Source of the DNA: a virus
Taxonomy: Duplodnaviria > Heunggongvirae > Uroviricota > Caudoviricetes
Reading direction: 5' to 3' (one strand)
IMG/VR virus record: IMGVR_UViG_2737471844_000001
DNA length: 36,714 nucleotides
The notes beneath the pieces were generated by a model. The model was not told where the DNA came from and made no database searches. It saw only the letters and a list, made by a program, of their open reading frames with translations. Shown here piece by piece: positions 583 through 28,477 of the stretch. The first letter of the stretch is position 1. Each line of letters opens with the position of its first letter. A program made the position numbers and the translations under genes.

Positions 583-1596
583 TTACTCTACTGTGGACAC
601 TGTGTGGACACTCTCGGCCTCAGTACCACCTCTCAGCGGATTAAGAGAAATGGCGTCCTGAAGGTACTCTGGAGCAAAATGAGCGTAAACCATAGTTTGC
701 TCAATCCGCGTGTGACCTAGTATCCGTTGTAGCGTGATAATACTTCCTCCATTAATCATGAAATGAGTGGCAAAGCTGTGCCTTAGTGCATGTGTGGCTT
801 GCCCCATTGGCAAATCCGGTTTTATTGCTTTCATTGTTCGTCTGAAGCGAGGGTAATCAGCATCAGGGAATAAAAAACCTCGTTTGTTATCCGCGATCAT
901 TTTGGCAACAGCCTCTGAGATCGGGACGGTGCGTGGTTTGTTTGTTTTCGTTTTAACAAACGTGACGCGGTTATGAATGATATTTTCTGCTTTCAAACGA
1001 GCTGCTTCTCCCCAACGTGCTCCAGTACTCAGGCAAAGAATCGCAATCTTTTTGTTGTCGCCGTCAAGAGCTGCGAGCAGTAAGGCAATTTCTTCCTGCG
1101 TGAGATAGCCTGTGTCTGGTTTTTCCTCCTTAAGCCTTTTTGTCCCTCTGATAGGGTGCTCACCAAAGTATAACTCCGCTTCAATCAGGGCTGTAAACAT
1201 GCCGCTAATACATGTTAAATCACGATTGATACTCGAAGGTTTAATACCCTGACTTCTTCGGGTGGCGCAGTATTGGCTGATAAGCGATTTCGTAATTTGA
1301 AATGCGCATGGGTCATTCGTTATTTTTGTGAAGATTTCAATTTTTCCAAGATTAGATTTCCCATGCTCTTCGTGTTTACCCTTTAAATCCCACCAGATCT
1401 GTGTCAGCTCCGACAGACGTCGCTTGTCTGTTGGTTTTGATAGCCATTCTTTATTGTGGTGGTTGTACAACGTGTATTTCTCGAAAGCGACAGCTTCGCT
1501 TTTCTTATCAAACTTCCTACGGATGCGTTTTCCATTACGTCCAGTAGGGCGGATGTCCACTTCATATCGACCATCATCGAGTTTTTTGATTGCCAT
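583..1596 (-). CDS. int: Tyrosine integrase (P2 Int-like, 337 aa)
   Basis: 337 aa as in P2 Int; C-terminal HALRHSFATH box and YAHF tyrosine; adjacent to att core and C repressor. Confidence 0.93.
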   Translation of the reverse strand: MAIKKLDDGRYEVDIRPTGRNGKRIRRKFDKKSEAVAFEKYTLYNHHNKEWLSKPTDKRRLSELTQIWWDLKGKHEEHGKSNLGKIEIFTKITNDPCAFQITKSLISQYCATRRSQGIKPSSINRDLTCISGMFTALIEAELYFGEHPIRGTKRLKEEKPDTGYLTQEEIALLLAALDGDNKKIAILCLSTGARWGEAARLKAENIIHNRVTFVKTKTNKPRTVPISEAVAKMIADNKRGFLFPDADYPRFRRTMKAIKPDLPMGQATHALRHSFATHFMINGGSIITLQRILGHTRIEQTMVYAHFAPEYLQDAISLNPLRGGTEAESVHTVSTVE

Positions 1597-3367: not shown

Positions 3368-3669
3368 TGTCCTGTTCTCATTCAGTTGTATTACTGAATA
3401 ACGCCTTAAAAATCGCCGTTATGGAAAATGGTGATTTATCTCTTATTCAACTTTGTCTTGATAAAGAAAAACGCGACATAACTGAATCTGTTATCGCGAT
3501 TTATCAGAATGAATTAAACCTCCTGTCTGATATGGTCAATTTACTTGTTAAACGCGCTGTGTTCCACAAGCAAATTTCCTCAGTGGATGAACTGACAAAA
3601 TTAACGACAGAACTTGCCAGTTATTGCGCTGATGTATCCAGGAAACTTAACGACAAAAGGAGCTGGTAA
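3364..3669 (+). CDS. Early protein at the P2 orf81 position (101 aa)
   Basis: Overlapping stop/start with both neighbours; early-operon synteny. Confidence 0.65.
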
Positions 3670-3893: not shown

Positions 3894-4168
3894 GTATTCG
3901 TATCGAAATTGGCGAACGTTATGTCGTTACCAGTGACAGCTTTCAGTTTATTCTCCACGAGAAAAAGAGAGCGGAAAGCGGTAAAAACGCCGGTCAGGAA
4001 TGGCTGGCGGTGGTTGGTTATTACCCGAAATTAAGCCAGCTCGTTTCCGGCCTGATGCATCACGATATTCTGACCGGAAGCGCAAAGTCTTTTGCTGATT
4101 TAAACGCGCAGGTTGAGCAACTCAGCAAGCGTTGTTCAGAGGCGTTCTCCAGAGGAGCGTCTGAATGA
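3890..4168 (+). CDS. Early protein at the P2 orf83 position (92 aa)
   Basis: Synteny; ATGA overlap with the previous gene. Confidence 0.65.
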   Translation: MSIRIEIGERYVVTSDSFQFILHEKKRAESGKNAGQEWLAVVGYYPKLSQLVSGLMHHDILTGSAKSFADLNAQVEQLSKRCSEAFSRGASE

Positions 4169-5172
4169 TTACTGATGCTCGTTGCCATACTGAAAATACC
4201 ATCAATGTTATTTTTGTTTCAGGTGGAAAGGACAGCCTTGCTCAGTGGCTTGTCGCTATTGAAGAAAATGTACCCATATTGCCGGTTTTTGCTGATACGG
4301 GACATGAACATCCACAGACAATGAAATATCTGGATTATCTGGAAAAACGGCTTGGCCCAATTAAAAGAGTCAGAGCTGATTTTTCCTGCCGGATTGAATC
4401 AAAGCGCAAGTTTATCCAGACCAAATGGCCTGACTTGTTGGTTAACGATTGTGGAATGTCGGAAGAAGAAGCGCACCAGCGCATCAGTTGTGCGCTGGAA
4501 ATTCTCAAACCAACGGGTATCCCGTTTCTTGATTTGTGTCTGTGGAAGGGGCGTTTCCCATCAACCAAAGCCAGATTTTGCACATTTGAACTGAAACATG
4601 AGCCCGTGCGTTCTCAGGTAATATTGCCTTTACTCAATGAATTTGAGGAAGTGATTAGCTGGCAGGGAGTGCGTGCTCAGGAATCGCCATCACGCGCTGC
4701 TTTACCTGTCTGGGAAGAGGATGCAGACAACACCCCCGGATTGCATGTATATCGCCCGATTTTGCACTGGAAGCATGAAGATGTATTTGCAATAGCCAGA
4801 AGACATGACATTAAGCCAAATCCGTTATATCAGCAGGGGTGTGGCCGTGTTGGTTGTATGCCATGTATTCATGTCCGTAAATCTGAACTGGCAGAAATTT
4901 TTCGCCGGTGGCCGGAGGAAATAAAACGGGTTGCTGAATGGGAACGACTGGTTGCGTCGTGCTCCCGTCGGGGAAATTCCACTTTTTTCCCATCCACACA
5001 TGATCCGCTACGCGCAGAACGTCGTATTGAGATTGTAACAGTCGAGGCATACGGAATAGAAACCTACCATGACTGGACAATGACAACGCGTGGGGGTACT
5101 CAGTTTGATTTACTGGCTTCGGCGAATGATAAAGCCGTTTGCAGTAGTGTCTATGCCGGTGTATGTGAATGA
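4165..5172 (+). CDS. PAPS reductase-like (PP-loop ATP pyrophosphatase family) protein, 335 aa
   Basis: N-terminal PP-loop VIFVSGGKDS; C-terminal cysteine cluster GCGRVGCMPC; inserted between orf83 and A, translationally coupled to both. Confidence 0.7.
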   Translation: MITDARCHTENTINVIFVSGGKDSLAQWLVAIEENVPILPVFADTGHEHPQTMKYLDYLEKRLGPIKRVRADFSCRIESKRKFIQTKWPDLLVNDCGMSEEEAHQRISCALEILKPTGIPFLDLCLWKGRFPSTKARFCTFELKHEPVRSQVILPLLNEFEEVISWQGVRAQESPSRAALPVWEEDADNTPGLHVYRPILHWKHEDVFAIARRHDIKPNPLYQQGCGRVGCMPCIHVRKSELAEIFRRWPEEIKRVAEWERLVASCSRRGNSTFFPSTHDPLRAERRIEIVTVEAYGIETYHDWTMTTRGGTQFDLLASANDKAVCSSVYAGVCE

Positions 5173-7439
5173 GTCATTCTTTCCAGGAGCAATACACCTG
5201 CGTAACTACGTCAGCATTTGCTGCAGGCACCGGTAAGACGTTTACCGGTGCTTATGCATGGAACGCGCCACGCGAGGCCGTCGGGCGCGAAAGACCCCTT
5301 ACACGTGACGAGATGCGTCAGGTGCAAGGGGTTTTATCCACGATTAACCGCCTGCCTTACTTTTTGCGCTCGCTGTTTACTTCACGCTATGACTACATCC
5401 GGCGCAATAAAAGCCCGGTACACGGGTTTTATTTCCTCACATCCACTTTTCAGCGTCGTTTATGGCCGCGCATTGAGCGCGTGAATCAGCGCCATGAAAT
5501 GAACACCGACGCGTCGTTGCTGTTTCTGGCTGAGCGTGACCACTATGCGCGTCTGCCGGGGATGAATGACAAGGAGCTGAAAAAGTTTGCCGCCCGTATT
5601 TCATCGCAGCTTTTCATGATGTATGAGGAACTCTGCGATGCCTGGGTGGATGCGCATGGCGAAAAAGAATCACTGTTTACGGATGAGGCGCAGGATCATC
5701 TGTATGGTCATGTTGCTGGCGCTGCACGTGCTTTCAATATTTCCCCGCTCTACTGGAAAAAATACCGTAAAGGACAGATAACCACGAGGCAGGCATATTC
5801 TGCCATTGCCCGCCTGTTTAACGATGAGTGGTGGACTCATCAGCTTAAAGGCCAGCGTATGCGCTGGCATGAAGCGTTACTGATAGCTGTCGGGGAGGTC
5901 AATAAAGACCGTTCTCCTTATGCCAGTAAACATGCCATTCGTGATGTGCGTGCGCGCCGCCAGGCAAATCTGGAATTTCTTAAATCGTGTGACCTTGAAA
6001 ACAGGGAAACCGGCGAGCGCATCGACCTTATCAGTAAGGTGATGGGCAGTATTTCTAATCCTGAAATTCGCCGGATGGAGCTGATGAACACCATTGCCGG
6101 TATTGAGCGTTACGCCGCCGCAGAGGGTGATGTGGGGATGTTTATCACGCTGACCGCGCCGTCAAAGTATCACCCGACACGTCAGGTCGGAAAAGGCGAA
6201 AGTAAAACCGTTCAGCTTAATCACGGCTGGAACGATGAGGCATTTAATCCAAAGGATGCGCAGCGTTATCTCTGCCGTATCTGGAGCCTGATGCGCACGG
6301 CATTCAAGGATAATGATTTACAGGTCTACGGTTTGCGTGTCGTCGAGCCACACCACGACGGAACGCCGCACTGGCATATGATGCTTTTTTGTAATCCATG
6401 CCAGCGTAACCAGATTATCGAAATCATGCGTCGCTATGCGCTCAAAGAGGATAGTGACGAAAGAGGCGCTGCGCGAAACCGTTTTCAGGCAAAGCACCTT
6501 AACCGGGGCGGTGCTGCGGGATATATCGCGAAATACATCTCAAAAAACATCGACGGCTATGCACTGGATGGTCAGCTCGATAACGATACTGGCAGGCCGC
6601 TGAAAGATACTGCTGCGGCTGTTACCGCATGGGCGTCAACGTGGCGCATTCCGCAATTTAAAACGGTTGGCCTGCCGACAATGGGGGCTTACCGTGAACT
6701 ACGCAAATTGCCTCGCGGCGTCAGCATTGCTGATGAGTTTGACGAACGCGTCGAGGCTGCACGCGCCGCCGCAGACAGTGGTGATTTTGCGTTGTATATC
6801 AGCGCGCAGGGTGGGGCAAATGTCCCGCGCGATTGTCAGACTGTCAGGGTCGCCCGTAGCCCGTCGGATGACGTTAACGAGTATGAGGAAGAAGTCGAGA
6901 GAGTGGTCGGCATTTACGCGCCGCATCTCGGCGCGCGTCATATTCATATCACCAGAACGACGGACTGGCGCATTGTGCCGAAAGTTCCGGTCGTTGAGCC
7001 TTTGACTTTAATAAGCGGCATCGCCGCGCCTCGGAGTCCTGTCAATAACTGTGGAAAGCTCACCGGTGGTGATACTTCGTTACCGGCTCCCACACCTTCT
7101 GAGCACGCCGCAGCAGTGCTTAATCTGGTTGATGACGGTGTTATTGAATGGAATGAACCGGAGGTCGTGAGGGCGCTCAGGGGCGCATTAAAATACGACC
7201 TGAGAACGCCAAACCGTCAGCAAAGAAACGGAAGCCCGTTAAAACCGCATGAAATTGCACCATCTGCCAGACTGACCAGGTCTGAACGATTGCAAATCAC
7301 CCGTATCCGCGTTGACCTTGCTCAGAACGGTATCAGGCCGCAGCGATGGGAGCTTGAGGCGCTGGCGCGTGGAGCGACCGTAAATTATGACGGGAAAAAA
7401 TTCACGTATCCGGTCGCTGATGGTTGGGGGGATTCATAG
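5169..7439 (+). CDS. A: Rolling-circle replication initiator endonuclease (P2 A-like, 756 aa)
   Basis: Length close to P2 A; HUH motif EPHHDGTPHWHMM and paired-tyrosine motif GYIAKYISK. Confidence 0.92.
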   Translation: MSHSFQEQYTCVTTSAFAAGTGKTFTGAYAWNAPREAVGRERPLTRDEMRQVQGVLSTINRLPYFLRSLFTSRYDYIRRNKSPVHGFYFLTSTFQRRLWPRIERVNQRHEMNTDASLLFLAERDHYARLPGMNDKELKKFAARISSQLFMMYEELCDAWVDAHGEKESLFTDEAQDHLYGHVAGAARAFNISPLYWKKYRKGQITTRQAYSAIARLFNDEWWTHQLKGQRMRWHEALLIAVGEVNKDRSPYASKHAIRDVRARRQANLEFLKSCDLENRETGERIDLISKVMGSISNPEIRRMELMNTIAGIERYAAAEGDVGMFITLTAPSKYHPTRQVGKGESKTVQLNHGWNDEAFNPKDAQRYLCRIWSLMRTAFKDNDLQVYGLRVVEPHHDGTPHWHMMLFCNPCQRNQIIEIMRRYALKEDSDERGAARNRFQAKHLNRGGAAGYIAKYISKNIDGYALDGQLDNDTGRPLKDTAAAVTAWASTWRIPQFKTVGLPTMGAYRELRKLPRGVSIADEFDERVEAARAAADSGDFALYISAQGGANVPRDCQTVRVARSPSDDVNEYEEEVERVVGIYAPHLGARHIHITRTTDWRIVPKVPVVEPLTLISGIAAPRSPVNNCGKLTGGDTSLPAPTPSEHAAAVLNLVDDGVIEWNEPEVVRALRGALKYDLRTPNRQQRNGSPLKPHEIAPSARLTRSERLQITRIRVDLAQNGIRPQRWELEALARGATVNYDGKKFTYPVADGWGDS

Positions 7440-7640
7440 GGCGCTTTGATTTTTTCTGTGTTTGACATAGAATAGCCCCGTTACCGCTTGGGACATCTAC
7501 TTTGCATTACTCTTGGTATTAGCTTTGTACAAAGGGTATAAAGGCTGCTATTGGCAACAATAGTGCTGGCATGGAGATTGCCTCATGTTAAAGCTAGTGA
7601 ATGTACGCCAGTACAACCGCTACCGCTTTGGGCGTTGGGA

Positions 7641-7660
7641 GACGGTGCGTAAGCACCGTC
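7641..7660. other. Perfect 8-bp stem-loop GACGGTGC-GTAA-GCACCGTC between convergent genes
   Basis: Read directly; no flanking U-tract on either strand, so not a canonical intrinsic terminator. Confidence 0.4.
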
Positions 7661-7688
7661 GTTCTTACCCAAAACGATAATATGCGGC

Positions 7689-9905
7689 CTAAGCGGTAAC
7701 GTTCTCCTCTTCTAGTTCGTCCATCATTTTTAAATAATGCATTTCGTCACCAGTAGCTGAAAATATTGTTCTCAATTGTTTTAGGTATTTATCTGGGTCT
7801 ATGTCGCCCATATCAGTAATATTTACCGCATCAGAGTGAGAACCTCTGTTAATGTATCTGTAGAATGCTTTGAAATCACTGTTGCTATCGTCGCGTGCCA
7901 ACTTTGTTAATTCATCTTGTAGAGCATCTGTTCTATGAACAAATGCAAAATAATATTCTAGTATGTTTCTCATAATATTAGGTATTATGATTTTGTTTGC
8001 TTTGCCATCTTTTGCATCTTTTAATATTTGCCACAAAGATTGATATTCATTCTGTATGCTGTTTTTTTGTATTTCAGTAATTATACTAAAATCATTTTTC
8101 GTTACTCTACCTAGATAATAGTTTTTCTTAAATAGTTTGTCTTCTCTGCTTTTAGGAGATAGCTTAATAAGTTCATGAAAGAAATAAAGATTGTGAGTAA
8201 GGATTAATACCTTCTTTGTTAATTCATTTTTTATAATGTGGTGATGAATAATTGATGCGATGTCGTAGACATAGTTTTGCGATAGACTAGATATTGGATC
8301 GTCAATAACAATAAAAATATCCCTGCTATCGGTATCATTTTTATCGGTTTTACCTTTACAGCACTCTAAAAAATAAAGAAACGTTATTAGTGTTTTTTCA
8401 CCTTCGCTAAGAGATCTATAAACATTTTGGTTTTTTGTATGCCCTGGTCGAGATATAATGTACATATCTTTTCTTTCTGCATGTTTTTCAATACAAAAAC
8501 CAGAGATCCCTAGATTTTTTAAATGGGTGTTTATTGAGTCTATCGTAGAATCAATGTTAGATATTTTATCTCGCAATGCTTTTATTGTGAGATTATTTTC
8601 TTTTCCTTGTTGCTCAATATTATTTAATTCATCATGAACTTTCTTTTTGATATCAAAGAATTTTTCTTTGTGTTTGGATAAATTCTCTAAATCATCGCTG
8701 CAAAAAGCATGGAGAGCCCCCCAAACTTGTTTTCCGATTTTATTCTCATACTCTTTGAGTTTTTTAACCTTATCATTTATGTCTCTTATTTTTTTGTTAA
8801 CAGCGTCTATGCTTTCCTGAACATGATTTTCTAGTTCTTTATCAATTTCTAATGTAACGCATGTTGATGGATTGTTGATCTTATCAATAATGTTTATTAA
8901 ATTTTTTTCTGCAATGTTTTGCAATATTTTAATATTGGAAATAATGATCTCTTTATCTTTCTCATTGATTAGTGCACATGATGATATATTGTTTTGTATT
9001 TCGTTAAAATGATATATGGTATTTTTCTCATAAACTGACTTTATATCTGAGAGCTGTTTTACTTTCTTTGAATAACTTTCGTCAAATATTGATTTAAGGG
9101 CATTTAAAAATTCGCGACTAATAGTTTTTTCCTGACAAAACGGGCATGTAGAACCGTCTAAATAATGTTCTTTACCTTTTTTTACCCAGTCAAGATTATG
9201 AAGTTTATTAATGGTTTCTGATAAATAGCTATTGCTTGTATCTATTATAGGTGTTGCTAATGTATTTACATCATCAATTGATGGGGTATATGGGTGTAAA
9301 GGAGTTATTAATGCGGTTTCATTGTTTCTATTTTCTAATAGTATAGAGTATTCTTTTGCTATATCATTTAAATTAATAAAGGTGATTGGTGAGGATGATT
9401 TTATCATCTCAAAAAAAGGTCTTTTATAGCCAACTTTACCTTTCATTAAGGTTTTTAGTACAGAGTTTCTGATTGGTTCTGTTTTTTTCCAGATCGATTC
9501 GATGTATTCATTTTCTTTTTTTTCCATTTCTGCTTCTAATTTCAATAACACTCCTTTTTTTTGTCTATATTGCTCTGTAAGTTGCTGTTTAATTGCTTCT
9601 TTTTTAATTAATTGTTTTTCAATATCTGCATTTTCTTTACTTAATGTAAAAACACCTTTTTGTTCCTGTGCATTGTAGAAATTATCTTCAATAAATTTAG
9701 TGTTGTAAACAAGAGGTTTGTAATTGTCAAGAAGGGTACATTCACACTCGTTATAATCTGTGTGTGTAGAGTCGTAGAAATAATTTGAAATGGTAGATTT
9801 GCCACAACCATTTTGGCCGTATAGTATGTTTACTCTTTTTTCAAGATTCAGTATTGTGAAGGCGTCTTTCTTATAACTGGTAACATTTTTTAATCTAAGT
9901 TCCAT
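7689..9905 (-). CDS. Cargo ABC-type ATPase (738 aa) with CxxC insertion and possible RloC/PrrC-like anticodon-nuclease C-terminal region; candidate anti-phage defence protein
   Basis: Walker A GQNGCGKST (res 30-38), ABC signature LSEGEK, Walker B IFIVIDDP, H-loop LTHN; CPFC at res 254-257 plus ECEC at 54-56; C-terminal R-x3-E then H at +40; AT-rich island at the P2 tin/old position; GAGG RBS before the ATG. Confidence 0.6.
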   Translation of the reverse strand: MELRLKNVTSYKKDAFTILNLEKRVNILYGQNGCGKSTISNYFYDSTHTDYNECECTLLDNYKPLVYNTKFIEDNFYNAQEQKGVFTLSKENADIEKQLIKKEAIKQQLTEQYRQKKGVLLKLEAEMEKKENEYIESIWKKTEPIRNSVLKTLMKGKVGYKRPFFEMIKSSSPITFINLNDIAKEYSILLENRNNETALITPLHPYTPSIDDVNTLATPIIDTSNSYLSETINKLHNLDWVKKGKEHYLDGSTCPFCQEKTISREFLNALKSIFDESYSKKVKQLSDIKSVYEKNTIYHFNEIQNNISSCALINEKDKEIIISNIKILQNIAEKNLINIIDKINNPSTCVTLEIDKELENHVQESIDAVNKKIRDINDKVKKLKEYENKIGKQVWGALHAFCSDDLENLSKHKEKFFDIKKKVHDELNNIEQQGKENNLTIKALRDKISNIDSTIDSINTHLKNLGISGFCIEKHAERKDMYIISRPGHTKNQNVYRSLSEGEKTLITFLYFLECCKGKTDKNDTDSRDIFIVIDDPISSLSQNYVYDIASIIHHHIIKNELTKKVLILTHNLYFFHELIKLSPKSREDKLFKKNYYLGRVTKNDFSIITEIQKNSIQNEYQSLWQILKDAKDGKANKIIIPNIMRNILEYYFAFVHRTDALQDELTKLARDDSNSDFKAFYRYINRGSHSDAVNITDMGDIDPDKYLKQLRTIFSATGDEMHYLKMMDELEEENVTA

Positions 9906-10220
9906 TTTTATGCCTCATACGATAAAGCTTTTATTGTATGTAAAAAAGCAGCTTAATATAGCCACTTAGTGGTAAAGATCTACCTTAAGACTTTGATATG
10001 TGCAAGAGGCATATAACGTAAGTGTTCGTTGAGCCAAATATGTTTACGCTATGACGAGTTGGTCGTTTTTTGACAATCCTGTAGGAGCTATAGATAGGCG
10101 TATATTAAGTGCGTGTTTTTGCATGTGTCAGATACTATTCTTTTTGTCAGTTTCGGTCAGTGCTGATGTGATTTCAGTTTCATCATGCAACTGCATTAAA
10201 ACCGCCCCATGAAGCGGGCG

Positions 10221-10239
10221 GGCGAGGCGGGGAAAGCAC
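10221..10239. other. cos cohesive-end site, GGCGAGGCGGGGAAAGCAC
   Basis: 19-nt sequence matching the P2 cohesive end as I recall it, immediately upstream of the portal/terminase genes. Confidence 0.8.
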
Positions 10240-10408: not shown

Positions 10409-11443
10409 TCAGCCGTTGTCAGGGTCCAGTGAGTAGTTTTTAAAGCGGATGACCTCCTGACCGAGCCAGCCGTTTATCTCGCGGATCCTGTCCTGTAACG
10501 GGATAAGTTCATTGCGGACAAAGACCTTTGCCACTTTCTCAATATCACCCAGCGACCCGACGTTCTCCGGCTTGCCACCCATCAACTGAAAGGGGATGCG
10601 GTGCGCGTCCAGCAGGTCAGCGGCGCTGGCTTTTTTGATATTAAAAAAATCGTCCTTCGTCGCCACTTCACTGAGGGGGATAATTTTAATGCCGTCGGCT
10701 TTCCCCTGTGGGGCATAGAGAAACAGGTTTTTAAAGTTGTTGCGGCCTTTCGACTTGACCATGTTTTCGCGAAGCATTTCGATATCGTTGCGGTCCTGCA
10801 CGGCATCGGTGACGTACATGATGTATCCGGCATGTGCGCCGTTTTCGTAATACTTGCGGCGGAACAGCGTGGCCGACTCATTCAGCCAGGCAGAGTTAAG
10901 GGCGCTGAGATATTCCGGCAGACCGTACAGCTCCTGATTAATATCCGGCTCCAGCAGGTGAAACACGGAGCCGGGCGCGAAAGGTGTCGGCTCGTTGAAG
11001 GACGGCACCCACCAGTAAACATCCTCTTCCACACCACGGCGGGTATATTTTGCCGGTGAGGTTTCCAGTCTGATGACCTTACCGGTGGTGCTGTATCGCT
11101 TTTCCAGAAACGCATTACCGAACACCAGAAAGTCCAGCACAAAGCGGCTGAAATTCTGCTGTGAAAGCCACGGATGCGGGATAAATGTCGAGGCCAGAAT
11201 ATTGCGTTTAACGTAAATCGGTGAGCTGTGATGCACGGCAGCACGCAGGCTTTTTGCCAGACCGGTAAAGCTGACCGGTGGCTCATACCATCTGCCGTTA
11301 CTGATGCACTCGACGTAATCCAGAATGTCACGGCGGTCGAGTACCGGCACCGGCTCACCAAAGGTGAATGCCTCCATTTTCGGGGCGCTGGCGGTCATTT
11401 TTTTTGCCGCAGGTTGCGGTGTTTTCCCTTTTTTCTTGCTCAT
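10409..11443 (-). CDS. Q: Portal protein (P2 Q-like, 344 aa)
   Basis: Exact P2 Q length; next to cos and terminase; stop/start overlap with P. Confidence 0.92.
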   Translation of the reverse strand: MSKKKGKTPQPAAKKMTASAPKMEAFTFGEPVPVLDRRDILDYVECISNGRWYEPPVSFTGLAKSLRAAVHHSSPIYVKRNILASTFIPHPWLSQQNFSRFVLDFLVFGNAFLEKRYSTTGKVIRLETSPAKYTRRGVEEDVYWWVPSFNEPTPFAPGSVFHLLEPDINQELYGLPEYLSALNSAWLNESATLFRRKYYENGAHAGYIMYVTDAVQDRNDIEMLRENMVKSKGRNNFKNLFLYAPQGKADGIKIIPLSEVATKDDFFNIKKASAADLLDAHRIPFQLMGGKPENVGSLGDIEKVAKVFVRNELIPLQDRIREINGWLGQEVIRFKNYSLDPDNG

Positions 11444-13215
11444 CAGTAAAACTCCAGAATGGTGGATGTCAGCGGGGTGCTGATACCGGCGGTGAGTGGC
11501 TCATTTAACAGAGCGTGCATGGTCGCCCATGCGAGGTCGGCGTGGCTGGCTTCCTCGCTGCGGCTGGCCTCATAGGTGGCGCTGCGTCCGCTGCTGGTCA
11601 TGGTCTTGCGGATAGCCATGAACGAGCTGGTGATGTCGGTGGCGCTGACGTCATATTCCAGACAGCCACGGCGAATAACGTCTTTTGCCTTGAGCACCAT
11701 TGCGGTTTTCATTTCCGGCGTGTAGCGGATATCGCGCGCGGCGGGATAGAACGAACGCACGAGCTGGAACACGCCGACACCGAGGCCGGTGGCATCAATA
11801 CCGATGTATTCGACGTTGTATTTTTCGGTGAGTTTGCGGATGGATTCCGCCTGAGTGGCAAAATCCATGCCTTTCCACTGGTGACGCTCAAGTATTCTGA
11901 ATTTGCCACCGGCCACCACCGGCGGTGCCAGCACCACGCATCCGGCGCTGTCGCCACGGTGTGACGGGTCGTAACCAATCCATACCGGGCGGGAGCCGAA
12001 CGGATTGGCGGCAAACGGCGCATAGTCTTCCCATTCTTCCAGCGTGTCGACCATGCAGCGTTGCAGCTCCTCGAACGGGAACACTGACGCCTTGTCGTCA
12101 ACAAATTCACACATGAACAGGTTTTTAAAATCGTCGGCGCTGTTTTCGCGTTTGAGCTGCTCAATGTCGAACAGCGTGCAGCCACCTTTCAGGGCGTCCT
12201 CAATGGTGACAATCTGCCGCCACTGGCCGTCCGCACAGAGAAGACCTCCGGCAAGGGCGTTATGACTGACGTCGATTTCCACGCGTTCGGCGGCGCTGGC
12301 GCGTCCCCGGTTGAACAGTTCACCCGACCAGAACGGGTAGGCGTCGTGCGCCAGCGTGGACGGGGTGGAGAAATAGGTCGAGCGCAGGTGACTCTGTGAG
12401 GCCATACCTGATGCCACCTTACGCAGTACCTGAAAATTCGGGATCCAGAAAATCTCATCGACGTACAGGTCGCCGTTATGGCTCTGTGCGGTGTTGGAGT
12501 TGGTGCCGAGAAAAATCAGTTTTGCGCCGTTATTGCCCAGGACAATCGGGTCACCGGTCAGGTCAACGTCAACCAGCCGGGCAAAGGCGATGATGTATTC
12601 ACGGAACACATACGCCTGCGTTTTACTGGCCGACAGAAAAATCTGGTTATGGCCGGTTTTCAGGGCGCGCAGCAGCGCCTCGCGGGAAAAATAAAACGTT
12701 GCGCCAATCTGACGGGATTTCAGGATATCGCGGATGCGGTGCTCAAGCCCGGCGCGATACCAGTGCAACTGATAGTCGAAAGACTGCTCAAAGAAAATCT
12801 GCTCCAGCTTTTCGATGGCCTCGTCACTGAAAAAATTCTTTTTCGGTTTGCGACGCCCGTCTTTGTTGCGGTTAGCGACGTTCGGATTAAGGTCTGCCTC
12901 GTTGCCGGTCTGACTGTAGCGGTTTACCCGTGCCAGTCGTTCAATCTGGCGTCCGAGCAGGTCAATTTCCTTGAAGTCACCGCCGGTTTTCTGCGGTTTG
13001 ATGATGAGCTGGGTCAGCCGCGCTTCCAGACTCATTTCGACACGGCTGATGGGGGCAACGCTGTCCCAGCCGTCGCGCTGTTTCCAGCTCTGCACCGTCG
13101 GGCGTTTCATCTGCAACATGGCGGCAATCTGCGGCACGGAAAATCCCTGCCAGTACAGCAGCGCCGCCTGACGACGCGGGTCGTGTAAAAGAGTGGTGTC
13201 TGTGGTGATGGTCAT
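11443..13215 (-). CDS. P: Terminase large subunit / ATPase (P2 P-like, 590 aa)
   Basis: Start placed at second ATG (13215), which has a GAGG RBS and gives the P2 P length of 590 aa; ORF track starts 10 codons earlier. Confidence 0.9.
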   Translation of the reverse strand: MTITTDTTLLHDPRRQAALLYWQGFSVPQIAAMLQMKRPTVQSWKQRDGWDSVAPISRVEMSLEARLTQLIIKPQKTGGDFKEIDLLGRQIERLARVNRYSQTGNEADLNPNVANRNKDGRRKPKKNFFSDEAIEKLEQIFFEQSFDYQLHWYRAGLEHRIRDILKSRQIGATFYFSREALLRALKTGHNQIFLSASKTQAYVFREYIIAFARLVDVDLTGDPIVLGNNGAKLIFLGTNSNTAQSHNGDLYVDEIFWIPNFQVLRKVASGMASQSHLRSTYFSTPSTLAHDAYPFWSGELFNRGRASAAERVEIDVSHNALAGGLLCADGQWRQIVTIEDALKGGCTLFDIEQLKRENSADDFKNLFMCEFVDDKASVFPFEELQRCMVDTLEEWEDYAPFAANPFGSRPVWIGYDPSHRGDSAGCVVLAPPVVAGGKFRILERHQWKGMDFATQAESIRKLTEKYNVEYIGIDATGLGVGVFQLVRSFYPAARDIRYTPEMKTAMVLKAKDVIRRGCLEYDVSATDITSSFMAIRKTMTSSGRSATYEASRSEEASHADLAWATMHALLNEPLTAGISTPLTSTILEFY

Positions 13216-13387
13216 GAATACCTCGCCGTGATGAATACACGGCAAGGCTACTGAGTCGCGCCCCGCGATTCGCTAAGGTGCTGTTGTGTCAGTGATAAGC
13301 CATCCGGGACTGATGGCGGAGGATGCGCATCGTCGGGAAACTGATGCCGACATGTGACTCCTCTAATCACTATCAGGACTCCTGACA

Positions 13388-22080: not shown

Positions 22081-24399
22081 ATGAGCACAAAATTCAGAAC
22101 CGTTATCACCACTGCCGGTGCAGCAAAGCTGGCAGCGGCAACCGCGCCGGGAGGGCGGAAGGTCAACATTACCACGATGGCCGTCGGGGATGGCGGTGGT
22201 AAATTGCCTGTCCCGGATGCCGGACAGACCGGGCTTATCCATGAAGTCTGGCGACATGCGCTGAACAAAATCAGCCAGGACAAACGAAACAGTAATTATA
22301 TTATCGCAGAGCTGGTTATTCCGCCGGAGGTGGGCGGTTTCTGGATGCGTGAGCTTGGCCTGTACGATGATGCGGGAACATTAATTGCCGTGGCGAACAT
22401 GGCCGAAAGTTATAAGCCAGCTCTTGCCGAAGGCTCAGGGCGTTCGCAGACCTGTCGCATGGTCATCATCGTCAGCAGTGTGGCCTCAGTGGCGCTGACC
22501 ATTGACACCACAACGGTGATGGCGACGCAGGATTACGTTGATGACAAAATTGCAGAGCATGAACAGTCACGACGTCACCCGGACGCCTCGCTGACCGCAA
22601 AAGGTTTTACTCAGTTAAGCAATGCGACCAACAGCACGTCTGAAACACTGGCCGCAACGCCGAAAGCGGTAAAGGCCGCGTATGATCTTGCTAACGGGAA
22701 ATACACTGCGCAGGATGCCACCACAGCGCGAAAAGGCCTTGTCCAGCTCAGTAGCGCCACCAACAGCACGTCTGAAACGCTCGCCGCAACACCAAAAGCG
22801 GTAAAGGCAGCATATGACCTTGCTAACGGGAAATACACTGCACAGGACGCCACCACAGCGCGAAAAGGTCTTGTCCAGCTCAGTAGCGCCACCAACAGCG
22901 ATTCTGAAACGCTTGCGGCAACGCCAAAGGCGGTTAAGACAGCGTATGACCTTGCTAACGGGAAATACACTGCACAGGACGCCACCACGGCGCGGAAAGG
23001 TCTTGTTCAGCTCAGTAGCGCCACCAACAGTGATTCTGAAACGCTGGCCGCAACATCAAAAGCGGTGAAGTCTGCCTATGACAATGCTGAAAAACGTCTT
23101 CAGAAAGATCAGAACGGTGCGGATATTCCGGGAAAGGATACCTTCACGAAAAATATCGGTGCCTGTCGTGCTTATAGCGGCGCTTTGAGCACTGAAGCCG
23201 GAAACTGGACAACCGCTCAGTTTATTGAATGGCTGGATTCCCGTGGTGCATTTAATCATCCGTACTGGATGTGCAAAGGCTCCTGGTCATATGCAAATAA
23301 CAAAATCATTACGGATACCGGATGTGGTGATATCCACCTGGCTGGTTGTGTCGTCGAGGTCATGGGAACTAAATCTGCAATCACTATCCGAGTGACCACG
23401 CCGACAACATCAAGTGGTGGCGGTACAACCAGCGCGCAATTCACTTACATTAATCATGGGGACGGCTACTCCCCCGGCTGGCGTCGTGACTGGAATCGTC
23501 AGGGCGACTCAATGACCGGAACGATTAATCAGGATGGCGGAAGCCAGAATGCCTATATGTCTACGGCCTTATGTTCAGGCACCAGAGGCGGCAAAAAATA
23601 TCTCAGAAAGTTTCGTGGTGGAGAAGGAGACACTATCTGGCATGAAACAGTACAGGGCGGGGTAGTTCGCTGGGCGACTGGTAATACTGATGCTCAGGAA
23701 GAATTATCACTCAGCTCCGCTTATGGTCTCCGTTCAAGAGGTGAGATTACATCACTCAGTGCTAATGGTCTGCGCATTGCTTATGGCAATTATGGTTTCT
23801 TTATCAGGAATGATGGCAGCAGCACTTATTTTATGTTGACTAAATCAGGTGACAGATTAGGCAGTTATAATAATTTAAGACCGCTGATTATAAATGATGC
23901 CACGGGTGCTGTATCAATGGGGCATGGCCTGAATGTTACTGGTGATATTGTCTCAAGTACCAAAGTACGTGCCGGTAGCGGGAAAAAATTCACGGTCAGC
24001 AGCAGTAATACATCCACGAAGGAAGCCGCATTCAATTTGTGGGGAAACTCAAGTCGTCCGGTGGTGGCTGAATTAGGTGATGATGCAGGCTGGCATTTTT
24101 ACAGTCAGAGAAATACAGATAACAGCATCACTTTTGCTGTTAACGGGCAGGTATCACCATCTAACTATGGCAACTTTGATTCACGCTATGTCCGGGATAT
24201 CCGGCTTGGTGGTGCTGCCACATACAAACCTGCGAACAATGGCATGACATGGACACATCAGGCACCGTCCGGGTGTGTATATTCCGGCATTATTGTTCAG
24301 GATACCGGCTCAAACTCTGCCGATAACATTGGTGGCATATATTACAGACCGGTGCAGAAATACATTAACGGGACATGGTATAACGTGGCGCAGGTATAA
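22081..24399 (+). CDS. H: Tail fibre protein (P2 H-like, 772 aa) with internal tandem repeats
   Basis: Position between I and G; about 100 aa longer than the P2 H length I recall (669 aa), accounted for by the in-frame repeats. Confidence 0.88.
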   Translation: MSTKFRTVITTAGAAKLAAATAPGGRKVNITTMAVGDGGGKLPVPDAGQTGLIHEVWRHALNKISQDKRNSNYIIAELVIPPEVGGFWMRELGLYDDAGTLIAVANMAESYKPALAEGSGRSQTCRMVIIVSSVASVALTIDTTTVMATQDYVDDKIAEHEQSRRHPDASLTAKGFTQLSNATNSTSETLAATPKAVKAAYDLANGKYTAQDATTARKGLVQLSSATNSTSETLAATPKAVKAAYDLANGKYTAQDATTARKGLVQLSSATNSDSETLAATPKAVKTAYDLANGKYTAQDATTARKGLVQLSSATNSDSETLAATSKAVKSAYDNAEKRLQKDQNGADIPGKDTFTKNIGACRAYSGALSTEAGNWTTAQFIEWLDSRGAFNHPYWMCKGSWSYANNKIITDTGCGDIHLAGCVVEVMGTKSAITIRVTTPTTSSGGGTTSAQFTYINHGDGYSPGWRRDWNRQGDSMTGTINQDGGSQNAYMSTALCSGTRGGKKYLRKFRGGEGDTIWHETVQGGVVRWATGNTDAQEELSLSSAYGLRSRGEITSLSANGLRIAYGNYGFFIRNDGSSTYFMLTKSGDRLGSYNNLRPLIINDATGAVSMGHGLNVTGDIVSSTKVRAGSGKKFTVSSSNTSTKEAAFNLWGNSSRPVVAELGDDAGWHFYSQRNTDNSITFAVNGQVSPSNYGNFDSRYVRDIRLGGAATYKPANNGMTWTHQAPSGCVYSGIIVQDTGSNSADNIGGIYYRPVQKYINGTWYNVAQV
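22600..23095 (+). repeat. About 3.75 tandem copies of a 132-bp (44-aa) in-frame repeat inside H
   Basis: Repeat units begin at 22600, 22732, 22864 and 22996, each encoding K-G-x-x-Q-L-S-x-ATNSxSETLAATPKAVKxAYDLANGKYTAQDATTAR; the last copy is partial. Confidence 0.9.
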
Positions 24400-24402
24400 T
24401 TT

Positions 24403-24930
24403 ATGCAGCATTTGATAAATATAACGGTGGGTAATCCAAAAACGGTTGAACAATATCAATTGACAAAGGACTTTGATGTTGTCTGGTTTTTTTCAGAAGA
24501 TGGTAAGAACTGGTACGAAGAACAAAAGTATTTTGCTGATGACACGATAAAAATAGCGTACGACAAAGATAATATTATCCGCTATGTGGAAAAGGATGTG
24601 ACAGCTATCAGACCAGATGGATTAAGTGTGGTTGAAGTGGCGGATATTACTGCTAACCGACGGGCGGACATTTCAGGGAACTGGATGTTTAAGGACGGCA
24701 AAGTGATTAAACGCATTTATACGGCAGAGGAATTGCAGCAGCAGGCAGAAAACCGGAAAGCCAGACTTCTTGCAGATGCTGAATCCGTGATTTTGCCACT
24801 GGAGCGCGCTGTCAGGCTGAACATGGCAACAGATGAGGAGCGTAGCCGACTGGAAGCATGGGAACGCTACAGTGTTCTGGTCAGCCGTGTGGATCCTGCA
24901 AATCCTGAATGGCCGGAAATGCCGCAATAA
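24403..24930 (+). CDS. G: Tail fibre assembly chaperone (P2 G-like, 175 aa)
   Basis: Length and position after H. Confidence 0.88.
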
Positions 24931-25405
24931 GTTGTATAAGCTCTGGTGTGAGATTACATATCTATGGCACAGAGTAAAGCCTAATCTGACAGTCCGCTCT
25001 GTGCCAAGAGCGGACGTTACTACTACTCGACCTAAAGTAAAGCAATTGTACTCATTAAATAGTGGTAATTGGGTCTGGTGCTTAATCGAACGAAATCTCA
25101 TGTTAGGCGAAAAAAACGTCTGAAAAATCGATTAACACATACACCTGTGTACTATGGCCGTTATTCAATTTAAAAGGAACCATTTCCGATATGATTCACT
25201 GTCCATAATGTTTTGATTTATTAAAAAAGAGCCTTAGAGTGTGAAACCATTACGTTGAGTGGCGAACACCATTAATAAATTCTGCTTATACTTACAGCAT
25301 ATATTATGTTCACGTCATATAACCATGGCAAATAAGATATTGCACATCAAGCATGATTATGATAGTGATTACAAAAATGAAGAATCTTAGATAAAGGATT
25401 AGTAA

Positions 25406-26341
25406 GTGGTTACATATAATTCAATGTTGTTACCCCCCCCTAAATCTTGGGACGAATTTGAGGATATGTGCAAAAGTTCATTCCAACTGCGATGGTCCAA
25501 TCCTAATCTGAACAGACATGGACGGTCAGGGCAGCGGCAGGATGGAGTTGATGTATATGGTGATGACTCTCTTGGGCGTTTCGTTGGAATTCAGTGTAAA
25601 AATACAGTATCAGGAATCAGTACGGCGACAATCGATGATGAATTACTCAAGGCTGAAAAATTTCGCCCAAAAATTACGGTTCTTTACATCGCTACGACAG
25701 CGCCCAGGGATGTTAGCATTCAGCGCTATGTAAGAACACTCAATGATGCCAGACAATTAAAAGGCCTGTTTCCTGTCGATGTGGTTTTCTGGGAGGATAT
25801 TAGCTTTGATTTAAGCAAAGACCCAGCTGTACTCAAAATGTACTACCCGCAAATGTTCGAACGACACCAACCGACGAGGGAAGAATTTTTGCGCAAGAGA
25901 GATATCTCAAATTTGTCGACATTGTTGAATGTTATTGATTTTCATTCAACAATAGAACATTTGCAGTGGGGCGCAAAATACATTCATTCATTAATTATTG
26001 AAGAATACGATAATATTTTGAACATTTTAAACTCACCTGTTTTTCAACTGAATGATACAGCTTTAAAGAATGTTACAATTGATTTTGCAACGGCCTGGCG
26101 TGATCTAATTATCTTGTTTAGAAAAGCTCCATATAATTATTCAGCACCAAATGATACTTTTAGTTTTATAAATCCCGGTGACCACTGTCGAAATCAGGAG
26201 GAAAGCGATTTATACGACGAAATCACGCATAGCATGAGTAATCTCAAAGATAAAATTAGTACTTTTTGTGACTTTATAAATAATCACTACCATGAAATAA
26301 ACTTAACCGAAACGAGCGCGCAAGCCAGGAAATATTATTAA
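25406..26341 (+). CDS. Cargo protein with Mrr-like PD-(D/E)xK restriction-endonuclease-fold N-domain and uncharacterised C-domain (311 aa); candidate defence nuclease
   Basis: EFE...GRSGQRQDGVDVYGDD...RFVGIQCK...ITVLYIATT resembles the Mrr catalytic-domain pattern (D, D, QxK); GTG start with AAGGA RBS; AT-rich island at the P2 Z/fun position. Confidence 0.6.
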   Translation: MVTYNSMLLPPPKSWDEFEDMCKSSFQLRWSNPNLNRHGRSGQRQDGVDVYGDDSLGRFVGIQCKNTVSGISTATIDDELLKAEKFRPKITVLYIATTAPRDVSIQRYVRTLNDARQLKGLFPVDVVFWEDISFDLSKDPAVLKMYYPQMFERHQPTREEFLRKRDISNLSTLLNVIDFHSTIEHLQWGAKYIHSLIIEEYDNILNILNSPVFQLNDTALKNVTIDFATAWRDLIILFRKAPYNYSAPNDTFSFINPGDHCRNQEESDLYDEITHSMSNLKDKISTFCDFINNHYHEINLTETSAQARKYY

Positions 26342-26618
26342 TACTTTTTTCTTAAGGGCTGCACTCATGGCCCTTAACACCGTTAGACTGTCATATTTTG
26401 CAATCGATACGCAGTTAGGTACTTTCTTGAAGTCCGTTCCTCGCTCATAGCTGACATTCAGCTCAATTAACTCGTCCACTTCGCTCCAACAGAAGGCGTA
26501 GCTAATCATACTGTGTATTAAAGAAAGGAGAAACGATCATGTTGAGTACAAAAAACACGAAAGACCATGATAAGGAAAATATGCGTAGAGTGACTTAGTT
26601 TATTGATTTAAATAATAT

Positions 26619-26924
26619 TTATGGGGGTAAGTGCTTTGAATAAAAAAACAAAAATTGAGAAGATTTAGCTAGTGCCAAAATAATTTGGACACCGCCCGTC
26701 ATCAGACCCGCTACTACACTTATCACCCCAGCCCAAAAAGTTTCAATGAAACAAGATACATATAGTAGTACTACATGGCGGAATAATTTACTCATAGGCT
26801 TCTCCTTACTGACGTAATCGTTAAGTAACACGTTGAGGTAACGGATAAATGCGACTATTGGGAGAGCTGTGATGAGAATTGTAGGCATAGGAATCGAACC
26901 TATGGATGCACTAGCTAAATTCAC
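26619..26924 (-). CDS. Possible small membrane protein (101 aa, GTG start), antisense between the two cargo genes; may be spurious
   Basis: Two or three hydrophobic segments; no clear RBS; reads through a tRNA T-arm-like motif on the same strand. Confidence 0.25.
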   Translation of the reverse strand: MNLASASIGSIPMPTILITALPIVAFIRYLNVLLNDYVSKEKPMSKLFRHVVLLYVSCFIETFWAGVISVVAGLMTGGVQIILALAKSSQFLFFYSKHLPP

Positions 26925-27125
26925 TCTTCACGAATTATACAGCATTGTAGTGAGTTTGTAAATACACGCCCCAAAAGTCAATCAGTCCGCTCCATGAATG
27001 TTGTGTCAGTACTACTAAAGTTAAACATGCTAAAATAGGTTCCCAATATTCGTGGGTACAATCACTATCTGTGTAACTGGCGGAAGCGCTGGCATAACGA
27101 CGATGCCTATTCGGGGGGCTTTAAT

Positions 27126-27992
27126 ATGGTCCGTTTTAACTTACTAGAAAATGCGTTGGATTCAGTGGAAACCGGGCTGGACTACTTTAACAAAGCGCTA
27201 GAAGGGCATGATCGACGTGACTACAAACAGTGCCTGCTTAACCTCTTTCAGGCCGCTGAGCTATTGTTGAAGGCCGTAGTTTCGCGCAATGGGTCTGGAG
27301 CGATTTTTAATCCAGCATCGCTTCAAGAAAAATGTGTGGATCCGGCGCATCCAACCGAGTCAGAATTACACCAGTGTAAATCTGTCAACGTCAACCAGCT
27401 TTGTAAGCTGTTAAAGACATATTACCCAGCCGAATTTTCTGAATCTGCATTACAAATGATGAAAACGGTGGGTCAGTTGCGTAATAACCTTCAGCATTTT
27501 GCCCTTGAGGTTCGTCCGCAAGAACTGGCAATGCAACTGAGTGAACTGTACCAACAAATTTTTCGTCCCGCATTCGTCATAATTCAGTCAGATGAGACCG
27601 AAAATTCATGGAACTCTGATTTACGTCAAGACATCATCGCTCTTGAGCAACAATTCCTTGATATAACTGTTAACCAGGAATACACCCTTGCACTTTGTCC
27701 CGTTTGTGAGAGTTTTTCACATTTTATCCTTTACCAAAGTGAAAGCTTTCCGGCACGGACTCACTGTATCTGTTGTGGTTTCAGCCTGAATAATCTGCAA
27801 ACTTGGGATTTTCAGGAATGTCCTGAATGTAGTGTCCCATCCGTAATTTATTTACCGGAACAAAGGGTCGGTGTCTGTCTCTGGTATAAATGTGAATACA
27901 GCAAGATGGATGGTTTTGTTCCTATGGAGCCTTGTGAATGTGGTGCATTCCGGATGGAAGGTCATTGCAGTAACTGCGATCTTGAGGAATAG
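27126..27992 (+). CDS. Cargo HEPN-domain protein with Cys-rich putative zinc-ribbon C-terminus (288 aa); candidate RNase-type defence effector
   Basis: Rx4H motif in TVGQLRNNLQHF after an alpha-helical N-region; C-terminal 90 aa with repeated CxxC/CxC pairs (CPVC, CICC, CPEC, CEC, CSNC). Confidence 0.6.
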   Translation: MVRFNLLENALDSVETGLDYFNKALEGHDRRDYKQCLLNLFQAAELLLKAVVSRNGSGAIFNPASLQEKCVDPAHPTESELHQCKSVNVNQLCKLLKTYYPAEFSESALQMMKTVGQLRNNLQHFALEVRPQELAMQLSELYQQIFRPAFVIIQSDETENSWNSDLRQDIIALEQQFLDITVNQEYTLALCPVCESFSHFILYQSESFPARTHCICCGFSLNNLQTWDFQECPECSVPSVIYLPEQRVGVCLWYKCEYSKMDGFVPMEPCECGAFRMEGHCSNCDLEE

Positions 27993-28355
27993 TAAAATCG
28001 TCCGATGAGAATGTACAGCAGCCTGGTCGATGATTTCTTGATGAATCGCTGAATTATCCGGTATTACTTGACAACTAAATCGCACATTTCTGTTTCTGGC
28101 AATTTGAAAGGTTTACTCTATGCCCCAGAATTCAGCACATACATAAAAACACCATTTCAGAACGCGTCTTGATCCAAAGAACGACTGTATGATAGATAGG
28201 CGTCGTCGTGAGGACAGGAATGATCTACCCCCCGTTATTCATACAGAATGCTGTTAGTAATGTCCGCAGATCGCTCAAAGCAGACTGTCAGATTTGATAG
28301 CGTTTGGGCTATGTAAGTAGCCAGTTGGAGAATGAGTGAGTGCAAATCAGGACTG

Positions 28356-28381
28356 GCGGGCGAATTGCCCGCATTTTCTTT
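28356..28381 (+). terminator. Candidate rho-independent terminator separating the cargo island from the late tail operon
   Basis: GCGGGC-GAATT-GCCCGC hairpin followed by ATTTTCTTTAT. Confidence 0.6.
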
Positions 28382-28477
28382 ATCTGTTGTTTCATCCACT
28401 GACCAGCCAGGTCAAATAGCGTCTCATGCACTGCCCAACAGAAAATAGTTGCACCCATTAACCACGGAGTTAAACGG

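Follow-up and report, generated by a model that had tools for sequence, protein, structure and literature searches.

RloC was defined by Davidov & Kaufmann through the combination of ATP-binding cassette (ABC) motifs, a coiled-coil/CxxC insert and an R-x3-E-x36-52-H motif in which a serine often precedes the histidine; in the protein from Geobacillus kaustophilus, the corresponding landmarks are K44, C291 (of the CxxC), D572 and R692/E696/H737 (PMC2610378 / PMC3458546). Cleavage of the tRNA anticodon loop by this protein is activated by DNA, of which the linear form is most active, and by ATP hydrolysis (PMC2610378, PMC3458546), while the natural trigger of RloC and its role in phage defence were stated to be unresolved (PMC3458546). 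Our comparisons draw on the literature for G. kaustophilus and Acinetobacter baylyi (Davidov & Kaufmann 2008; Klaiman et al. 2012, 2014). Here we describe an RloC-like gene in the IMG/VR virus record IMGVR_UViG_2737471844_000001, a stretch of 36,714 nucleotides (hereafter the window) that contains a P2-type prophage; the gene encodes a 738-residue ABC ATPase fused to a predicted nuclease domain, and stands tail to tail with a conserved 31-codon micro-gene enclosed in a structured RNA. On balance, we judge it probable that the island holding the two genes serves the prophage as defence cargo, with an RloC-type anticodon nuclease at its centre and with the peptide and/or the RNA as a regulatory partner.

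The protein has the complete RloC layout, in which a split Rad50-like head, a CPFC-bearing insert and a helical nuclease domain of the PrrC/RloC type follow one another (Table 1). An earlier reading of this DNA, made from the letters alone, had proposed a 738-residue open reading frame (ORF) on the minus strand, with Walker A and Walker B motifs separated by about 490 residues, a CPFC insertion between them and, near the C-terminus, R-x3-E followed by a histidine 40 residues later. All of these features were recovered. The ORF begins with ATG, with GAGG 8 nucleotides upstream, and Walker B (FIVIDD, 531-536) follows Walker A (30-37) after some 500 residues. A total of 116 homologues were found, and residue conservation was read from an alignment of 82; in this alignment the CPFC cysteines and their proline were invariant, the H-loop (T570-H571) was conserved, and the C-terminal motif took the form R646-x3-E650-x39-(S689)H690, with S689-H690 40 residues past the R-x3-E. 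R646 was invariant, E650, S689 and H690 were each kept in at least 90% of the homologues, and N643, N686, H723 and Y724 were invariant or nearly so. A second motif that had been pointed out near the N-terminus, ECEC, did not stand; only C54 is conserved among the homologues, and the idea of a zinc site at this position was therefore rejected.

Pfam AAA_13 spanned residues 17-716 (E=1.8e-111) and, when the C-terminal domain was searched alone, was the only Pfam family to match it (E=8e-19). The PADLOC model PDLC04886 for PDC-S06 covered residues 2-730 of 738 (E=2.4e-254), and the PADLOC model for PrrC matched residues 490-730 only (E=9.7e-13). No TOPRIM, OLD or Gabija/GajA model in Pfam or PADLOC matched the protein, in agreement with the earlier statement that it carries no TOPRIM motifs and is not an Old homologue; weak, ABC-level matches to AriA and LmuB in the PADLOC and Pfam scans were the only relatives of the OLD/GajA/PARIS class. 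Scanning with NCBIfam yielded nothing meaningful, and since a sequence search of the PDB was likewise empty, there was no RloC or PrrC structure with which to compare the protein. Across NCBIfam, PDB sequences and Foldseek, no characterised non-defence ATPase family was matched beyond the generic Rad50/SMC fold. The protein also matches phrog_2801 (function unknown). Several homologues at 28-32% identity carry the source name 'wobble nucleotide-excising tRNase' (COG4694-type), and those from Streptococcus prophages are annotated 'translation-disabling ACNase'. Taken together, the end-to-end AAA_13 match, the PrrC match, the tRNase-named homologues and the conserved R/E/H residues bear out the RloC/PrrC-like assignment of the sequence-only reading, which was supported by every test applied, and as judged from these sequence comparisons the protein appears to be a new member of a known family. 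Its proposal that the gene is a candidate phage-carried defence gene agrees with the listing of the family in PADLOC as the candidate PDC-S06.

In an AlphaFold 2 (AF2) model built from the 82-sequence alignment (predicted local distance difference test, pLDDT, 83), the ABC head was split into an N-lobe (1-88) and a C-lobe (471-611), and an all-helical C-terminal domain occupied residues 620-727. Long helices were predicted at 90-141 and 276-447 within the helical insert (90-464 in the model), which is the fastest-evolving part of the protein (52% identity, versus 76-84% in the head and C-domain). The CP[VF]C motif of this family resembles the hook of Rad50. When the model was compared with the PDB by Foldseek, the best matches were Rad50, SMC heads, Lamassu LmuB and PtuA; full-length matches were dominated by the ABC head, and the C-domain was therefore modelled separately.

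The island that carries the gene lies in a prophage whose integrase gene (583..1596) is followed by early genes, and whose landmarks run in the order A, island, cos, Q, P. In megablast comparisons with 5,426 complete Escherichia coli genomes, homology to differently loaded P2-like prophages stopped at about 7436, the stop codon of A, and restarted at about 10183-10193; retrons, HEPN, HNH and DUF7380 genes and other cargo fill the same slot in sister prophages. Phage P2 has old and tin at this A-cos position, and the hotspot was described by Rousset et al. 2022 (PMC9122126) and Vassallo et al. 2022 (PMC9519451); in other prophages, it carries known defence systems (PMC9122126). The present gene is absent from the main text of both papers and of the 2026 P2/P4 preprint. 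With A directly to the left, an exact 19-mer of P2 cos to the right and a slot that varies among P2-like prophages, the tin/old placement given by the sequence-only reading was confirmed, as was its remark on foreign base composition, the GC content being 0.296 in the ATPase ORF versus 0.53 in A and Q. Its description of the island as holding a single gene between A and cos was wrong, however, and the AT-richness does not extend throughout; the 249 bp between the stop codons of A and the ATPase gene (7440-7688) have a GC content of 0.47 and contain the conserved 31-codon gene on the plus strand.

Copies of the ATPase gene at least 99% identical to this one were found in 42-44 complete E. coli genomes, where the sole annotation is 'AAA family ATPase', and three more alleles, with 68-70% DNA identity, fill the same slot in other E. 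coli strains; the gene is present in about 1.4% of complete E. coli genomes. A 99.4% identical copy occurs in an avian pathogenic E. coli (APEC) O1:K1:H7 strain. Several genera have P2-like prophages with diverged alleles at this spot, and the gene is also found outside prophages, for example at a chromosomal site in Serratia marcescens.

The micro-gene encodes a hydrophilic, strongly basic peptide (isoelectric point 11.8; grand average of hydropathy, GRAVY, -1.56) and is preceded by a conserved GGAG ribosome-binding site (RBS). Upstream lies a promoter-like sequence in which positions 1, 2 and 6 of the -10 hexamer (7468, 7469 and 7473) were invariant in 9 loci from 6 genera. The ORF was intact and always 31 codons long in four E. 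coli alleles, among which the codon differences were 45 synonymous versus 22 non-synonymous in frame; in the +1 frame, which served as control, they were 10 synonymous versus 56 non-synonymous, and stops appeared. Length, start, stop and RBS were kept from E. coli to Neptuniibacter. The peptide matches phrog_21154 (E=1e-9; function unknown), and no Pfam family was found for it; the gene is annotated 'hypothetical protein' in some genomes and was missed by the Prokaryotic Genome Annotation Pipeline (PGAP) in loci L001-L004. Relatives of the peptide were sought by tblastn, by a back-translated scan of viral contigs and by exact-sequence look-up.

The micro-gene lies within an RNA whose 5' and 3' ends pair, and whose predicted fold sequesters both the RBS and the start codon. 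The closing helix, which begins 7 nucleotides past the promoter-like site, joins 7480-7492 (GTTACCGCTTGGG) to 7688-7700 (CCTAAGCGGTAAC), 13 nucleotides each, and its 3' arm covers the ATPase stop codon and last three codons. For the 221-nucleotide plus-strand RNA, the minimum free energy was -89 kcal/mol (z = -5.85); the opposite strand also folds well (z = -5.1). RNAalifold independently found the closing helix, a GNRA-type hairpin, a hairpin within the ORF and the helix that takes up the RBS and AUG. In nine sequences the closing helix was 98% paired, with 4 of its 13 pairs changed on both sides. When loci L062 and L065, which have helix arms of divergent sequence, were included to give 11 sequences, the whole fold was 83% paired, versus 32-47% in slid controls, and 28 pairs were changed on both sides, versus 14 in shuffles (0 of 500 shuffles reached 28); the closing helix was then 96% paired with 5 such pairs, and the in-ORF hairpin contributed 6. 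Every wobble pair was G.U on the plus strand, which assigns the structure to the transcript of the micro-gene rather than to that of the ATPase gene. Some substitutions preserve the amino acid and the base pair alike, such as Arg CGU to AGA in Providencia, so that coding and structure both appear to be constrained. In Rfam 15 there was no match at E<=1 to either strand of 7300-10500, and no intrinsic terminator was found for either gene in the 7440-7688 stretch. A search by eye for a mimic of the anticodon loop in the RNA was unconvincing. As a separate observation, nearly every ATPase in the E. coli-type clade has (V/A)-T-A as its last residues; the corresponding codons, together with the stop, make up the 3' arm of the closing helix, and the C-terminus of the ATPase and the RNA structure therefore constrain each other.

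To what extent the two genes travel together was apparent from several comparisons. In E. coli, the 249-bp flank was limited to genomes with an ATPase allele (77 with the flank, 76 with the gene), and it was 86-88% identical between alleles whose ATPase genes share only 68-70% at the DNA level. The micro-gene adjoined the ATPase gene in all 13 loci whose ATPase was at least 40% identical; the pair was present in Enterobacter phage ENT4, at the non-prophage chromosomal site of S. marcescens, in P2-like prophages of Yersinia ruckeri, Serratia fonticola and Providencia, at a non-P2 locus of Neptuniibacter and in three IMG/VR contigs. In the reverse direction, a scan of viral contigs found a convergent ATPase gene at 19 of 19 loci with a close peptide. 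The same arrangement was seen in L065, where the ATPase is 32% identical, while in L062 (35% identical) the ATPase gene lies upstream of the micro-gene and is co-directional with it. Where the ATPases were 57-66% identical, the peptides were 84-97% identical. In Neptuniibacter marinus (L008, 1..6193), the ATPase homologue comes third in an apparent operon, behind ORFs of 1482 codons (cut by the end of the locus) and 706 codons, neither with a Pfam match, and the micro-gene is still downstream and convergent; a larger system may have formed around the same pair.

More distant relatives of the peptide share the core V-R-x-Y-x-R-x-R-x-G-x-x-E-x-V-x-x-H-x-R-S-x-P, which is conserved in this wider family while N-terminal extensions vary. 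Some stand without the ATPase gene, as the last gene of the cI operon, ahead of N, in Shiga toxin (Stx) phages, beside SRAP or Peptidase_M78 genes, or beside a gene with a weak match to DUF4145 (HEPN clan). Around most of these solo genes we could not clearly detect the closing helix, and our claim of this RNA architecture therefore does not extend to the family as a whole. The relative in Escherichia phage SH2026Stx1 (L012, 3956..4090) and in L072-L091, all Stx-converting phages, is a 44-residue protein that closes a cI-DUF3024-177aa operon just before N, a position equivalent to that of rexAB, and has no AAA_13 gene nearby. Among the neighbours of other solo genes (L066, 2682..3419; L067, 2838..3320; L063, 2251..2952; L064, 3724..4407) were the weak DUF4145 match and two SRAP (YedK-like) genes; a further neighbour showed, by eye only and with no Pfam match, the HEPN-looking motif RRAxSxAYYAxFH. 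In four viral contigs (L092-L095, at about 3489..3584) the relative has an in-frame stop (…VRSY*RFRFG…) and may be a pseudogene or a recoded site.

By homology with G. kaustophilus RloC, the ATPase and the zinc-hook region would keep the nuclease silent; ATP hydrolysis and DNA, perhaps aberrant DNA or DNA ends from an infecting phage, would release it, and the released nuclease would cut tRNA anticodon loops, such that translation would stop and the infection be aborted. The peptide and/or the RNA might then act as a regulatory partner that keeps the tRNase silent in the lysogen, either as an antitoxin-like brake or as a sensor of infection; this is our best guess, reached by inference only. 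A labile antitoxin could, for example, be lost when the phage shuts off host transcription, or, alternatively, the RNA or peptide could occupy the nuclease or its tRNA site. The stronger proposal, that this RloC-like clade is a two-component system with the end-paired RNA and 31-residue peptide as its brake or infection sensor, we put forward tentatively, as a possibility that falls well short of probable. A preprint reports that P2 Old, from the same hotspot, acts as an abortive tRNase in response to aberrant DNA (bioRxiv 10.64898/2026.07.10.737580); a functionally equivalent, unrelated effector is therefore plausible in this slot.

Several observations weigh against an RloC-type nuclease governed by a partner. 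Published RloC was described as self-regulated, with no partner needed; ATPase relatives at or below 32% identity were mostly without the micro-gene; and, of the 79 viral loci whose peptide relatives are more distant, 57 had no such ATPase nearby, from which it follows that the peptide family is not obligately tied to the ATPase. The peptide is also far better conserved than its presumed protein partner, which is unusual for an antitoxin. For the nuclease itself, AF2 confidence was low in the loop that holds S689-H690, and a literature search found no paper in which PDC-S06 was tested experimentally.

The first alternative is that the RloC-like nuclease works alone and that the micro-gene and its RNA are an independent moron or selfish element hitch-hiking beside it, such as a tightly repressed toxin-type mRNA. 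A closing helix between the 5' and 3' ends combined with a sequestered RBS is the architecture of type I toxin mRNAs such as hok, and the hitch-hiking explanation would account for this likeness, for the relatives that stand without an ATPase gene in many phages, for a module with its own promoter-like site and a GC content of 0.47 versus 0.30, and for the internal switch ascribed to RloC. It accounts less readily for an adjacency that holds across six genera and at chromosomal sites other than those of P2, even where ATPase identity has dropped to about 32%, for the survival of the pairing in the changed gene order of L062, or for the fact that in E. coli the module never occurs in the hotspot without the ATPase gene; typical type I toxins, moreover, do not share the strongly hydrophilic and basic character of the peptide. 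We regard this alternative as a serious minority view, somewhat doubtful but entitled to weight. Speculatively, we favour a regulatory partner, because the adjacency survives changes of host, changes of context and one change of gene order; the solo relatives and the extreme conservation of the peptide call for caution.

A second alternative leaves the effector in place and changes what it does: the protein would be an HEPN-type RNase with another target (mRNA, rRNA or another tRNA site) or a trigger other than DNA. HEPN domains cut many classes of RNA (PMC3710099), the identity to RloC-named proteins is only 28-32%, the published triad contains nothing that corresponds to the invariant H723-Y724, and Anantharaman et al. 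place prophage-borne ABC-HEPN proteins (the APECO1_4465 group) beside, and not within, PrrC and RloC. Set against this, the C-domain matches the AAA_13 and PrrC profiles specifically and with the triad spacing of RloC, and both characterised members of the family are anticodon nucleases; we consider a different target or trigger improbable.

It is very improbable that the 31-codon ORF is not a gene and that the 249 bp simply serve the ATPase gene as 3' untranslated region (UTR) or terminator, or represent a recombination scar. The stretch does lie directly downstream of the ATPase stop codon, its minus strand folds well, and it lacks a detectable intrinsic terminator for either gene; the plus-strand G.U wobbles, however, would be A.C mismatches on the ATPase strand, the ORF, with its excess of synonymous changes, is maintained from E. 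coli to Neptuniibacter, its peptide family exists elsewhere with a conserved core and variable N-terminal extensions, and the module is co-directional with the ATPase gene in L062. A role as ATPase 3' UTR only was rejected on the wobble polarity, the ORF conservation and the L062 gene order. Least probable of all is a Rad50/SbcC-like factor for maintenance of prophage DNA, for example near cos, since, although the best solved-structure matches are Rad50 and SMC heads and the gene adjoins cos, the island has no Mre11/SbcD-type partner gene, the protein carries a conserved RNase-type C-domain that Rad50 lacks, and the gene is a variable cargo of few E. coli genomes that is replaced by known defence systems in sister prophages and is also found outside prophages.

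RloC has been listed as a defence system mainly on the biochemistry of one thermophile protein. With an RloC-like gene in an E. coli prophage hotspot that is tractable, at the position of Old in P2, the activation of such nucleases can be addressed in a native system. If the partner controls the nuclease, RloC-type constructs made without the 3' flank might be toxic or inert, and a new class of RNA/micro-protein regulator would be added to the biology of abortive infection; the VRxYxRxRxGxxExVxxHxRSxP family of phage immunity regions could then be a general regulator of prophage-borne effectors. Even if the two genes are independent, the micro-gene represents an unannotated, widely distributed, structured small-ORF RNA of phages.

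Table 1. Features of the cargo island and its surroundings; positions are those of the whole window and residues those of the 738-residue protein.
Feature	Position	Strand	Basis or remark
P2 replication gene A	5169..7439	+	left neighbour of island
Variable cargo island, P2 A-cos (old/tin) hotspot	~7440..10185	no strand	comparison with P2-like prophages
Promoter-like TTGATT-16-TAGAAT for micro-gene RNA	7446..7473	+	sequence match
Structured RNA of ~220 nt enclosing micro-gene	7480..7700	+	closing helix, GNRA hairpin, RBS/AUG helix, in-ORF hairpin
Micro-gene, 31-aa basic peptide MLKLVNVRQYNRYRFGRWETVRKHRRSYPKR	7585..7680	+	convergent with ATPase gene; 8 bp between stops
738-aa RloC-like protein: Rad50-type ABC ATPase, coiled-coil/CxxC insert, predicted C-terminal PrrC/RloC-type (putative HEPN) nuclease domain	7689..9905	-	profiles, model
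C-terminal nuclease domain, residues 612-738	7692..8072	-	N643, R646, E650, N686, S689, H690, H723
ABC signature LSEGE (499-503) to Walker B/D-loop FIVIDDPISSLS (531-542)	8298..8411	-	E501, G502, E503, D535, D536, P537, S540 invariant
Helical insert splitting ABC head, residues 89-470	8496..9641	-	AF2 model
CPFC (C254-C257), putative zinc hook	9135..9146	-	C254, P255, C257 invariant; loop between helices 238-248 and 264-273 (AF2)
Walker A GQNGCGKS, G30-S37 (K36)	9795..9818	-	G30, G33, G35, K36 invariant in 82 homologues
Promoter-like CTGACA-18-TAATAT upstream of ATPase gene	10102..10131	-	consensus match only; weak evidence
P2 cos 19-mer GGCGAGGCGGGGAAAGCAC	10221..10239	+	19/19 match; 0.01 chance matches expected; backbone landmark outside cargo
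Portal Q	10409..11443	-	beyond cos
Terminase P	11443..13245	-	next to Q

The promoter-like site of the ATPase gene falls in the sole block of the 5' region that is conserved among alleles. Between this site (10131..10102) and the start codon, a terminator-like hairpin with a T-run (9946..9967, minus strand), which lacks conservation among alleles, might act as a leader or attenuator. Elsewhere in the window, a gene for a 335-residue protein of the PAPS-reductase family (4165..5172, plus strand; Pfam PAPS_reduct, E=5e-35) lies directly upstream of A and overlaps its start, with domain-level PADLOC matches to SspD, BrxP and DndC; as it is missing from the otherwise near-identical prophage of E. 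coli 120899 (L001), it represents extra cargo in the early operon. A second block of low GC content (0.35-0.45), at 25000..28400, occupies a hotspot of the P2 Z/fun type behind the genes for the tail fibre (22081..24399) and fibre assembly (24403..24930). It includes an ORF of 311 codons without a family (25406..26341) and one of 288 codons (27126..27992) that matches PADLOC PDC-S64 over its N-terminal half (E=4e-21) and, weakly, HEC-08 and DUF3644; the block is probably another defence candidate.

Among known systems, the best structural matches are Rad50/SbcC and Lamassu LmuB, with which the protein shares a split ABC head, a coiled-coil insert and a CxxC motif; in those systems the nuclease is a separate protein (Mre11/SbcD or LmuA), whereas here it is fused and of the RNase type. 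The micro-gene RNA recalls type I toxin mRNAs (hok, aapA1) and the type III ToxI in its long-range 5'-3' pairing, its sequestered RBS and its position next to a presumably toxic effector. Type I toxins are membrane toxins, whereas the micro-peptide is hydrophilic and basic, and ToxI is a repeat array, of which the micro-gene RNA has none. The convergent overlap of this RNA with the 3' end of the ATPase gene would allow antisense pairing; no separate antisense small RNA gene was identified at the micro-gene locus. P2 Old shares the genomic position and the fusion of an ABC ATPase sensor to a nuclease, but its effector is a TOPRIM domain where the present one is putatively of the HEPN type, the ATPase here is Rad50-like with a long insert, and the two are homologous in the ABC fold only. 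Prophage-encoded ABC-HEPN proteins of the APECO1_4465 group were proposed to exclude other phages (Anantharaman et al. 2013, PMC3710099), and the present protein fits this group by description only. The full-length match to PADLOC PDC-S06 places it under a computational label for a single-gene system without a partner.

PrrC, the anticodon nuclease of E. coli CT196, has a homologous ABC C-lobe and nuclease domain with the same triad, and a phage-exclusion role would be expected for both. At about 400 residues, PrrC lacks a coiled-coil/CxxC insert, whereas the present protein has an insert of 380 residues; furthermore, PrrC is always found within a type Ic hsd (EcoprrI) locus that silences it, whereas the neighbours here are A, the micro-gene, cos and Q. 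RloC, in contrast, is usually unlinked to a restriction-modification locus, as is this gene. The differences from RloC are an identity of only 28-32% to RloC-annotated proteins, the carriage as prophage hotspot cargo, the extra invariant H723-Y724 and the conserved micro-gene/structured RNA, a kind of partner that has not been described for RloC and, as far as our searches show, has been undescribed so far. Shared with RloC are the Pfam family (AAA_13, matched end to end), a similar size, the ABC motifs, the helical insert with CxxC and R-x3-E-x39-(S)H, with landmarks (K36, C254, D535/D536 and R646/E650/S689-H690) that, when compared via the published positions, fall in the same order and at similar spacing, offset from those of RloC by 8-47 residues.

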